Source of the DNA: a virus
Strand: one strand, 5' to 3'
IMG/VR virus record: IMGVR_UViG_3300029915_000731
Coordinates: 1-64,000 of that record
DNA: 64,000 nt
Part shown: one piece after another, positions 31,224 through 32,711 of the stretch
How positions within the stretch are numbered: position 1 is the stretch's first letter
Layout: each line of letters opens with the position of its first letter
Program-made: the position numbers and the translations under genes
The notes under the pieces: generated by a model
Told to the model about the DNA's origin: nothing
Database searches by the model: none
The model's input: only the letters and a program-made list of their open reading frames with translations

Positions 31224-31254
31224 AGTTTCTACTCACTGGGTCGGACTTAAACTT

Positions 31255-31291
31255 TTTCAATTGAACCCCGAGACCTTCCGGGGATAACAAC
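31255..31291 (-). CRISPR. Solitary CRISPR-like repeat, variant 2
   Basis: GTTGTTATCCCCGGAAGGTCTCGGGGTTCAATTGAAA. Confidence 0.65.
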
Positions 31292-31299
31292 CACTTATA

Positions 31300-31380
31300 T
31301 AAGATGTGAGGATGAGCTTCTCGTCTCACCCATAGCGGGTTCTTATGTTGCCGCCGTCCTGATTGAACGATCACACCTTA
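31300..31380 (-). ncRNA. Cloverleaf-like RNA without anticodon loop or CCA
   Basis: TAAGGTGTGA/TCACATCTTA terminal stem enclosing three arms. Confidence 0.45.
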
Positions 31381-31384
31381 AACT

Positions 31385-31461
31385 TGGAGCACTAGGAGGA
31401 ACTCGAATCCTCGCATTAACGGTTTTGCAGACCGTCGCCTTACCATCTTGGCCACTAGTGC
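31385..31461 (-). tRNA. trnC: tRNA-Cys(GCA)
   Basis: ACGGT-CTGCAAA-ACCGT; U73-CCA. Confidence 0.92.
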
Positions 31462-31470
31462 TAAACTTTT

Positions 31471-31545
31471 TGGAGCGGGAGACGGGATTTGAACCCGCGA
31501 CTTCGACCTTGGCAAGGTCGCACTCTACCACTGAGTTACTCCCGC
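31471..31545 (-). tRNA. trnG: tRNA-Gly(GCC)
   Basis: CGACC-TTGCCAA-GGTCG. Confidence 0.97.
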
Positions 31546-31603
31546 TGAGGGGGTAAATTTATAAAGCGGAAAGTCTACGTCAGACCCCCATCCGCTGAAT
31601 TAC

Positions 31604-31988
31604 TGTGCCAAACCGATAAGCGGAGTTCTGTTCCCCTCGCGGGGTGACAATCATTCGTCTACGAATACTGTTACCAGTACCCTCTAGCCCTCAACCCGCC
31701 GATTCATAACGGTACGAGCAGTACCTGTCGGCCTATTTGAAGTTGCATCGCGTAGAGATTGCCCGTTTCACCCGGCGTCCGGTTTCCCGGCTGACCGACT
31801 CGTCTCTGTTGCTCTAATCGTCGCAAGGGGGATTGGTTGGGAATTTACGGCTGTTACACCGCTGTCACGTTCGACATGAGAAACGCTTCCAACCACACCT
31901 TACGCTAGGCCGTTAGCCTATACGCTGCTCTTTGATGCTCCGACTTTCCTCCCCCACTTGCGTGGCGGCGATTGTCTGGTTTGGCACA
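31604..31988 (-). ncRNA. rnpB: RNase P RNA (bacterial type A)
   Basis: P1 TGTGCCAAACC/GGTTTGGCACA; GAGGAAAGTCGGAGC pairing with ACAGAACTCCGCTTA (P4); GGGCAATCTCTAC, TGCAAC, GGTAAC. Confidence 0.95.
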
Positions 31989-32019
31989 ATTCTGTATTGA
32001 AGCCGGGTCGGGACTTACA

Positions 32020-32361
32020 TCAATCCACCTTGATGCGTTCTACTGCCACGCAGCGGAGGTGGTCTCGCACCTCTTGAGAGAACTCGTTGAACATCGTGCC
32101 CTTATCCAACCAGTGCAAGATGGCCGCCCAAGTCTCCTCTTCAGGGGTCCACTGCCCTTCAAGACCGTAACACGAGCAGTGTGAACCGTGAACTGAAAAC
32201 AGCTTACCATCCTTCTCGAATAGGACAAAAGCCGAACCCTCGTAACACTCGTAGCGATACACAGCCGCGTAGATTACAGCGTCCTTCAATTCGTCCTCGC
32301 CGATTTGGAACTCCCGGCGGATGTCTTCAGCTTCATTGAACTGCTCCTCGAATACATTCAT
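32020..32361 (-). CDS. Conserved phage hypothetical protein (start revised to MNVFEE)
   Basis: AGGAG SD; YEGSAFVLF..DGKLF.VHGSHCSCYGLEGQW. Confidence 0.75.
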   Translation of the reverse strand: MNVFEEQFNEAEDIRREFQIGEDELKDAVIYAAVYRYECYEGSAFVLFEKDGKLFSVHGSHCSCYGLEGQWTPEEETWAAILHWLDKGTMFNEFSQEVRDHLRCVAVERIKVD

Positions 32362-32447
32362 TGTGTTTTCTCCTTGTGAAATCACATTCACGGGTGGAGT
32401 CGCGCAATGAAGTTCGATATGACAGCCCAACCCGACTTCAAAACTTT

Positions 32448-32526
32448 TGGTGGACCTCCAGAGATTCGAACTCTGCTGATATTTTCGGTGCAAGCGAAAT
32501 AAACACTCCTAGCATTTCCGAGGCCC
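32448..32526 (-). tRNA. trnA: tRNA-Ala(TGC), divergent D arm
   Basis: TTTCG-CTTGCAC-CGAAA; G3:U70; ACCA. Confidence 0.85.
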
Positions 32527-32568
32527 ACATTAAACTTAAATTTTCAAAGACCGTCAAGCTCTAAACTT

Positions 32569-32605
32569 TTTCAATTGAACCCCGAGACCTTCCGGGGATA
32601 ACAAC
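32569..32605 (-). CRISPR. Solitary CRISPR-like repeat, variant 2
   Basis: Identical to 31255-31291 including short flanks. Confidence 0.65.
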
Positions 32606-32711
32606 CACTTATAAGCTTGATTCGTCGGGTGTCAAGCTTATTAGCTTGTCCCGGTGTCAACCTAATACTGTTGACATTACCTTTGTCAACGTTACTCTGT
32701 TGACGAAACTC

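Follow-up and report, generated by a model that had tools for sequence, protein, structure and literature searches.

What is a CRISPR (clustered regularly interspaced short palindromic repeat) repeat doing, alone and in two identical copies, among the tRNA genes of a phage? This question is raised by the window analyzed here, which is the first 64 kb of the 100,340-bp IMG/VR virus record IMGVR_UViG_3300029915_000731. CheckV puts the completeness of the record at 32%, making it a fragment of a phage of ~300 kb, and its source is probably a large, jumbo-sized phage from peat bogs. On the minus strand, from ~33.2 down to 28.9 kb, the window contains a long noncoding operon with twelve tRNA genes, a class A RNase P RNA, a release-factor gene, and several RNAs without assignment, and within this operon stand the two solitary repeat units, which we call variant 1. 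The reading that we favor, and to which we give an even chance of being correct, is that the units are decoys for Csb2, a repeat-cutting enzyme of type I-G CRISPR systems, that they are cut from the tRNA operon transcript, and that they resemble the RNA anti-CRISPRs (Racrs) of other phages. Their transcription, processing sites, binding, and inhibitory effect are what we infer in the paragraphs that follow.

The original prediction had reported two identical solitary units of a second repeat variant among tRNA genes, and it was right in each of these respects. The 37-nt core of the unit occurs exactly twice in the window, both times on the minus strand (31255-31291 and 32569-32605); no further match with three or fewer mismatches was found in the window, and none was found in 100 shuffles. 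Identity between the copies extends over 52 nt on the minus strand, such that 31248-31299 equals 32562-32613, and each of these blocks consists of the 37-mer with TATAAGTG (8 nt) upstream and AAGTTTA (7 nt) downstream. Once the eighth handle base is included, the unit is 38 nt long (copy 1, 31254-31291; copy 2, 32568-32605), and it is then followed by AGTTTA. The closest other repeats are 637 and 1276 nt away. Both units are single, and they therefore form neither an array, with repeats and unique spacers of uniform length, nor a viral mini-array, with at least two repeats flanking a virus-matching spacer. The variant does, however, sit beside a mini-array variant (variant 2) in the same operon.

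Each unit consists of an 8-nt tail, a 6-bp stem (CCCCGG/TCGGGG), a 6-nt loop, a 4-nt linker (TTCA), and an 8-nt handle, ATTGAAAA. The stem pairs 31283-31278 with 31271-31266 in copy 1 and 32597-32592 with 32585-32580 in copy 2, and the handles lie at 31261-31254 and 32575-32568, respectively. Folded alone, the hairpin is not unusually stable (z = -1.3). The arrangement of a hairpin, a 4-nt linker, and an 8-nt ATTGAAAN handle fits the cleavage geometry published for Csb2 of type I-G, a fusion of Cas5 and Cas6 that cuts 4 nt 3' of the hairpin base and leaves an 8-nt handle (PMC9638904). By analogy with that work, Csb2 would be predicted to cut at 31262/31261 in copy 1 and at 32576/32575 in copy 2. 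After cutting, Csb2 remains on the hairpin (dissociation constant [KD] of ~43-55 nM), and it shows no appreciable binding to the handle (PMC9638904). The proposal that the units are RNA anti-CRISPRs thus remains the best available reading, but the enzyme concerned would be the type I-G fusion protein and not the stand-alone Cas6 that had been invoked.

On sequence grounds, the units belong to the type I-G repeat family, whose link to cas genes is direct for variant 2 and is made via alignment for variant 1. A 1,485-nt contig from a bog metagenome (L059) carries a csb2 open reading frame (ORF), a terminator-like inverted repeat, and then four repeats with unique spacers. In the alignment, these repeats differ from the phage variant-2 copies at 0 or 1 nt. 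The L059 Csb2 protein is recognized by TIGR02165 (2.5e-13, above the cutoff), by PADLOC as Cas56g (3.3e-21), and by Pfam as Cas_GSU0054. Variant 1 is identical to the L059 repeat at 32 of 38 positions, as counted manually from the alignment, and it retains all of the invariant columns of the family, namely, the stem, the T after the stem, and ATTGAAA. Since variants 1 and 2 have the same stem and loops that differ at only one position, one Csb2 could read both.

The homologues with 50 to 58% identity to the L059-type Csb2 are bacterial, and the nearest named one comes from the acidobacterium Candidatus Sulfotelmatobacter. A search confined to the order of a Terriglobales metagenome-assembled genome found another homologue on a 2.77-Mb contig, Terriglobales genome G581, in which cas3g (TIGR02621, 1e-132), a 252-amino-acid gene, cas7g, and csb2 are directly followed by a 21-repeat array. 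The same gene order is found on a metagenome contig, L058, whose Csb2 is 52% identical to the L059 type, and both arrays have 37-nt repeats of the same build. The build common to the family is a 7- to 8-nt tail starting with GT, a 6-bp stem with a C-rich and a G-rich strand, a 4-nt linker, and ATTGAAA plus one base. In its 8-nt tail and in the A that precedes the handle, variant 1 agrees with the G581 and L058 repeats in the alignment, from which it is judged to be a mosaic within the repeat family and not a decayed variant 2. As type I-G loci, G581 (C1:1376000-1395900) and L058 are compact, with an unassigned gene of ~250 amino acids in the position expected for cas8g. In ~4 kb beyond the G581 array, the ORFs tested included no cas1, cas2, or cas4 recognized by NCBIfam.

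Searches with the repeat itself were less productive. No Rfam CRISPR-DR family matched the region from 28 to 34.5 kb at an E value of ≤1. A first, rigid pattern with an 8-nt loop detected no array in 185,579 species genomes, giving only 29 single, unrelated matches; this null result is in part a false negative, as the loop is shorter in the related bacterial arrays, which were reached only via the Csb2 protein. In Acidobacteriota, csb2 was found in 3 of 401 genomes of a phylum sample (E ≤ 1e-10) and in 1 of 401 genomes of a Terriglobales sample (E ≤ 1e-20), and an array with the repeat pattern came up in 1 of 401 genomes of a family sample; the actual host species was not among the genomes found by these searches. 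The suggestion that two repeat variants address two host arrays found no support, in that scans with a pattern that variant 1 fits revealed no variant-1 array, and no additional copy of the variant, in IMG/VR, in JGI metagenome contigs, or in the 185,579 species genomes.

The two units belong to a larger set of repeats in this phage lineage. Across the 100,340-bp record, a profile of the repeat family matches exactly seven copies, which all lie on the minus strand from 29.47 to 33.44 kb, and the next match has an E value of 2.7. Variant-2 repeats form a mini-array of three directly behind a sigma-factor gene (33243-33434, minus strand), with "spacers" that begin with extra copies of ATTGAAA, and two more lie in a 71-nt tandem unit directly behind tRNA-Val(gac) (29472-29579, minus strand). 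No copy is present in the Leu/Tyr tRNA operon at 3 to 5 kb of the phage. By pattern scan, variant 2 is also present on two other IMG/VR fragments and on ten short bog-metagenome contigs from one sample series; most of these sequences carry tRNA genes near the repeats, and they are therefore assigned to the same phage lineage. One contig of the lineage, L057, comes from the same metagenome (Ga0302200) as the cas-linked contig L059. On a related phage fragment (L008, 4827-4901, plus strand), there is a tRNA with the anticodon CTA, called tRNA-Pyl by ARAGORN, that may act as an amber suppressor. Huge phages that are more distant but have the release-factor gene in common with this one possess tRNA islands without such repeats. 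The repeats therefore appear to be specific to the lineage, as would be expected of a host-matched counterdefense, and their absence elsewhere argues against a housekeeping role in tRNA operons.

What follows the repeats differs between phage and bacterium. Of 20 distinct phage-side sequences that come after a repeat, 10 open with ATTGAAA in one or two additional copies (33243-33434 and loci L007, L040, L048, L052, and L056), and the phage "spacers" are 11 to 50 nt long and are often duplicated. In the two long cas-linked arrays, none of the 48 spacers starts with ATTGAAA and all are 35 to 40 nt long; the L059 spacers, of 36, 29, and 29 nt, likewise lack the extra copies. The irregular phage units are thus unlike acquired guides, which favors a decoy role over a guide role. 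Three neighboring phage "spacers" searched for exactly in IMG/VR gave no match or only themselves, with no target, and comparison of the phage "spacers" with all of the fetched loci gave only self and chance matches.

Could the units be made as part of the tRNA operon? At the head of the operon, a consensus scan identifies a strong promoter-like site (33171-33200, minus strand; TTGACA, 18 nt, TATTAT; 11 of 12 matches), which is the likely source of a transcript bearing both units. In the scanned region from 28800 to 34200, there is no minus-strand terminator-like site except a leader hairpin at 33013-32991. Because the units lie downstream of the promoter-like site with no other terminator-like site intervening, they would be expected to be cotranscribed with the tRNAs. 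A weak promoter candidate stands before copy 2 (TTGACA, 16 nt, TATAAG, ending 2 nt ahead of the repeat); it fails the consensus scan, and we have not relied on it.

Both units stand at a similar distance behind a tRNA 3' end, and in both cases the intervening segment is strongly structured. Upstream of copy 1, tRNA-Gly(gcc) and tRNA-Cys(gca) (31385-31545, minus strand) are followed by a 93-nt structured RNA that reaches from the 3' end of tRNA-Cys to the repeat (31292-31384, minus strand; fold z = -3.0). Upstream of copy 2, tRNA-Gly(tcc) (32712-32786, minus strand) is followed by a 106-nt segment (32606-32711, minus strand; fold z = -4.0). Within the latter, three successive stem-loops are built on TTGACA/TGTCAA palindromes (32611-32705, minus strand), which could be RNA hairpins or operator-like DNA sites. 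On their other side, both variant-1 units, unlike the variant-2 copies, are followed by AGTTTA. The same sequence follows 9 of 21 tRNAs, against a background of ~0.8% per 10-nt window; in 9 of 21 tRNA genes, (A)AGTTT lies within a few bases of CCA (for example, at 3622-3627, 31379-31384, and 32904-32909). This trailer may mark a common endonuclease site, and its presence after the units suggests a cut right behind the handle.

The original prediction had envisaged a different product, a handle-first RNA released by a Cas6 cut and an RNase P cut. It had placed copy 2 42 nt upstream of the 5' end of tRNA-Ala (32526), and ARAGORN agrees, the distance being 44 nt to the 7-bp acceptor stem as read by eye. 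The gene concerned, a noncanonical tRNA-Ala(tgc)-like gene that ARAGORN calls (32448-32526, minus strand), has an acceptor stem with G3:U70, an anticodon arm, a T arm, and CCA. Its D arm is weak, with only three A-U pairs, and the Rfam tRNA model does not match it even at an E value of ≤10. RNase P could plausibly cut there, given this acceptor stem, the T arm, and CCA. The RNA so released is nevertheless made less attractive by two observations, in that it would be without the 3' hairpin that Csb2 holds (PMC9638904) and in that the AGTTTA trailer suggests a cut behind the handle. The upstream, hairpin-bearing fragment is more likely to be the active species than a handle-first RNA of ~50 nt.

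The decoy reading can then be put as a sequence of steps. Both units would be transcribed within the long tRNA/RNase P RNA operon, and tRNA-type processing would free them by cleavage at the upstream tRNA 3' end and again within the AGUUUA trailer, which would release an RNA of ~120 to 140 nt with the repeat hairpin at its end. Csb2 would bind this hairpin, cut 4 nt behind it, remove the 8-nt handle, and stay bound; for copy 1, the fragment keeping Csb2 bound would comprise the 93-nt segment and the hairpin. Seven such hairpins on a highly expressed operon would sequester Csb2, and perhaps Cas7g as well, in complexes that lack a useful guide, and type I-G immunity would be blunted in the manner of an RNA anti-CRISPR. 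A bare hairpin should be an especially effective decoy, since assembly of the type I-G effector needs Csb2 on the 3' hairpin and the handle is hardly bound. That solitary repeat units can act in this way has been shown experimentally for subtypes I-C, I-E, I-F, and V-A (PMC10651486). Also relevant to a decoy is the lack of partner genes on the phage side, in that neither the 100-kb record (~32% of the genome) nor two related fragments yielded a csb2, cas7g, or Cas6 gene. No csb2 was detected in 147 kb of the lineage, and none of the L059 family was detected in IMG/VR, although three fragments of the phage lineage are present there.

Several findings weigh against this reading. The cognate Csb2 locus, L059, is a 1.5-kb contig whose owner may be a host, a mobile element, or a phage. 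In that contig (372-1483, minus strand), csb2 breaks into two reading frames near residue 140 when compared with a 421-amino-acid cluster member (P0001), which may be an assembly error or the mark of a pseudogene, and two of its spacers, at 29 nt, are shorter than the 35 to 40 nt of the bacterial arrays; given the short spacers and the frameshift, the locus could sit on a mobile element or on the phage itself. When the spacers of the type I-G arrays L059, G581, and L058 and of locus L050 were compared with the phage, there were only chance matches, and there is thus no direct sign of this type I-G system attacking the phage. No known acr gene is adjacent to the units, and no promoter directly upstream of either passes the consensus scan, copy 2 having only the weak candidate described above and copy 1 lacking a -35 element.

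The doubt over the owner of L059 leads to an unlikely alternative, in which the phage has its own type I-G system, devoid of adaptation genes, in the two-thirds of the genome not covered by the record, and the dispersed repeats are sites for its own Csb2, serving guide production, regulation, or the cutting of long noncoding transcripts. With a record only 32% complete there is room for such a system, and in L059 csb2 abuts a short array with irregular spacers. The absence of this csb2 family from IMG/VR and from the 147 kb of the lineage speaks against it, as does the nearest named homologue of the L059 protein, which is acidobacterial; furthermore, the order of csb2 followed by an array is also that of the 2.77-Mb bacterial contig and of L058. 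It is quite improbable, in our judgment, that each unit instead yields a guide RNA, with Csb2 cutting before the handle and the handle and adjoining phage sequence entering the host Cascade, to target sibling phages or host DNA in which the same sequence occurs but the repeat does not. RNase P cutting ahead of the tRNA-like gene would set the 3' end of this RNA in the case of copy 2, and the geometry fits, with an 8-nt handle plus 41 nt to the 5' end of that gene and with the phage RNase P RNA gene 540 nt downstream. Moreover, it is established that viruses can carry mini-arrays that exploit host Cas proteins to target related viruses (PMC11656645). A guide of this form, however, would have no 3' hairpin, and it is the hairpin and not the handle that Csb2 binds at nanomolar concentrations (PMC9638904). 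The first nucleotides past the handle are a generic tRNA trailer common to both copies, which again suggests a cut there, and copy 1 is followed by a 228-nt RNA with no tRNA at spacer distance. The stretch between the copy 2 handle and the tRNA-like gene (32527-32567, minus strand), which is of spacer length and starts with the AGTTTA trailer, has no match in any fetched locus, leaving the guide without a target there.

The perfect identity of the 52-nt blocks, including flanks that are not part of the repeat, is striking in a lineage in which all of the other copies differ from each other, and other arrays of the lineage clearly grow by duplication of units, as seen in identical "spacers" and a duplicated 15-nt block. 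Both observations would suit units that have no function of their own and are leftovers of repeat-mediated recombination or duplication, the 52-nt direct repeats bracketing an inserted or duplicated 1.3-kb cassette (the tRNA-like gene, an ORF, the RNase P RNA, and two tRNAs). We regard this as very improbable, in that every invariant position of the repeat family is intact in both copies and variant 1 has the tail and the A before the handle of bacterial arrays and not the sequence of a decayed variant 2; neither of the two related viral fragments contains an orthologous region, with or without the cassette. Least credible of all is a role for the hairpin as a CRISPR-independent RNA element of the operon, be it a stabilizer, a processing site for a host RNase, or a terminator. 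The hairpin is placed at the boundaries of transcript units and its modest stability would be compatible with such a role, but it is identical or nearly identical to that of cas-linked array repeats, it has no U-tract and draws no terminator call, and neither the second tRNA operon of the phage nor related huge phages carry it.

The DNA between the two copies contains the tRNA-Ala(tgc)-like gene, a 113-amino-acid ORF, the RNase P RNA gene, tRNA-Gly(gcc), and tRNA-Cys. The phage-encoded RNase P RNA (31601-31987, minus strand) is of the bacterial class A (Rfam RF00010, 182 bits against a gathering score of 100); its gene is full length (model positions 1-367) and lies within the tRNA operon, bracketed by the identical repeat units. 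The ORF (32020-32361, minus strand) matches phrog_8792 (7.6e-29), falls in Atlas clusters that are mostly viral, and has no Pfam match. We considered it as a candidate anti-CRISPR gene and found no support, as it is a member of a widespread phage family without a known function. Beyond copy 1, an ORF-free stretch of 228 nt extends to tRNA-Ala(cgc) (31027-31253, minus strand); an internal direct repeat lies within it (ACCGTACCTCCGCCGCT/ACGGTACCCCCGCCGCT), and no Rfam family matches it at an E value of ≤1. Outside the window, the record carries a TnpB-type gene with the Pfam domains Cas12f1-like TNB and OrfB_IS605 (86402-87451, plus strand). The same gene gave a misleading PADLOC match to Csx1, and a DinG match is probably a DinG-type helicase.

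How do these units compare with systems already described? The closest are the Racrs (RacrIF1 and RacrIC1; Camara-Wilpert et al. 2023, PMC10651486), which, like the units here, are single phage mimics of a repeat that keep the hairpin read by the enzyme, with no cas genes in the available sequence. The action expected is also the same, i.e., competition for the Cas6-type subunit and the backbone subunit. The differences are that the subtype here is I-G, which is not mentioned in the main text of that paper, and that seven copies lie in one operon among tRNA and RNase P RNA genes, whereas a Racr has its own promoter and stands beside acr genes. The word "tRNA" does not occur in PMC10651486, while our units carry a tRNA-type trailer; their function, unlike that of the Racrs, is as yet a prediction. 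The type I-G repeats of Thioalkalivibrio sulfidiphilus that serve as Csb2 substrates (Shangguan et al. 2022, PMC9638904) share with the units a palindromic hairpin, a 4-nt linker, an 8-nt handle, a length of 36 to 38 nt, and membership in a family linked to csb2, cas7g, and cas3g. In contrast to those repeats, the units are solitary and are carried by a phage, without a spacer or second repeat, and variant 1, at 38 nt, combines the tail of one repeat subfamily with the hairpin of another.

Viral mini-arrays (PMC11656645) offer a second parallel, in that a virus without cas genes carries repeats identical to those of a cas-linked array, and the neighboring variant-2 units are mini-arrays in form. 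Neither variant-1 unit, however, has a partner repeat at spacer distance, and the "spacers" of the lineage are irregular (11 to 50 nt), with no targets found. A lone repeat followed by nonspacer sequence is also what a preprint describes for stand-alone repeat-like elements that give cr-like regulatory RNAs (bioRxiv 10.1101/2023.03.03.530964); as described there, those elements lie inside the cas loci of the system that they regulate, whereas the present units lie in a phage tRNA operon. That lone viral repeats can be RNA anti-CRISPRs is thus already known, and what is new here is the subtype, I-G, and the setting in an operon of tRNA and RNase P RNA genes.

If the decoy reading is true, RNA anti-CRISPRs would extend to type I-G, which has been studied less than any other type I subtype, and to phages that probably infect acidobacteria of peat, a group that is difficult to culture. 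The repeat also provides a lead to the host of an uncultured, probably jumbo-sized phage. With tRNA genes around them and a phage RNase P RNA gene close by, the units suggest a way in which such RNAs could be produced in bulk without dedicated promoters. Units of this kind may be missed by published search rules, in which a promoter is sought no more than 250 bp away in intergenic DNA. A broader idea, which we put forward tentatively and consider rather doubtful, is that huge phages turn their tRNA operons into factories for anti-CRISPR RNAs. In this scheme, lone repeats would take on the format of tRNAs, carrying the same trailer and being separated from the preceding tRNA by a cut, and would here share their cassette with a phage RNase P RNA gene, so that the machinery of tRNA maturation would release many Csb2-binding hairpins from one strong transcript, a general and hitherto undescribed route to Racrs.

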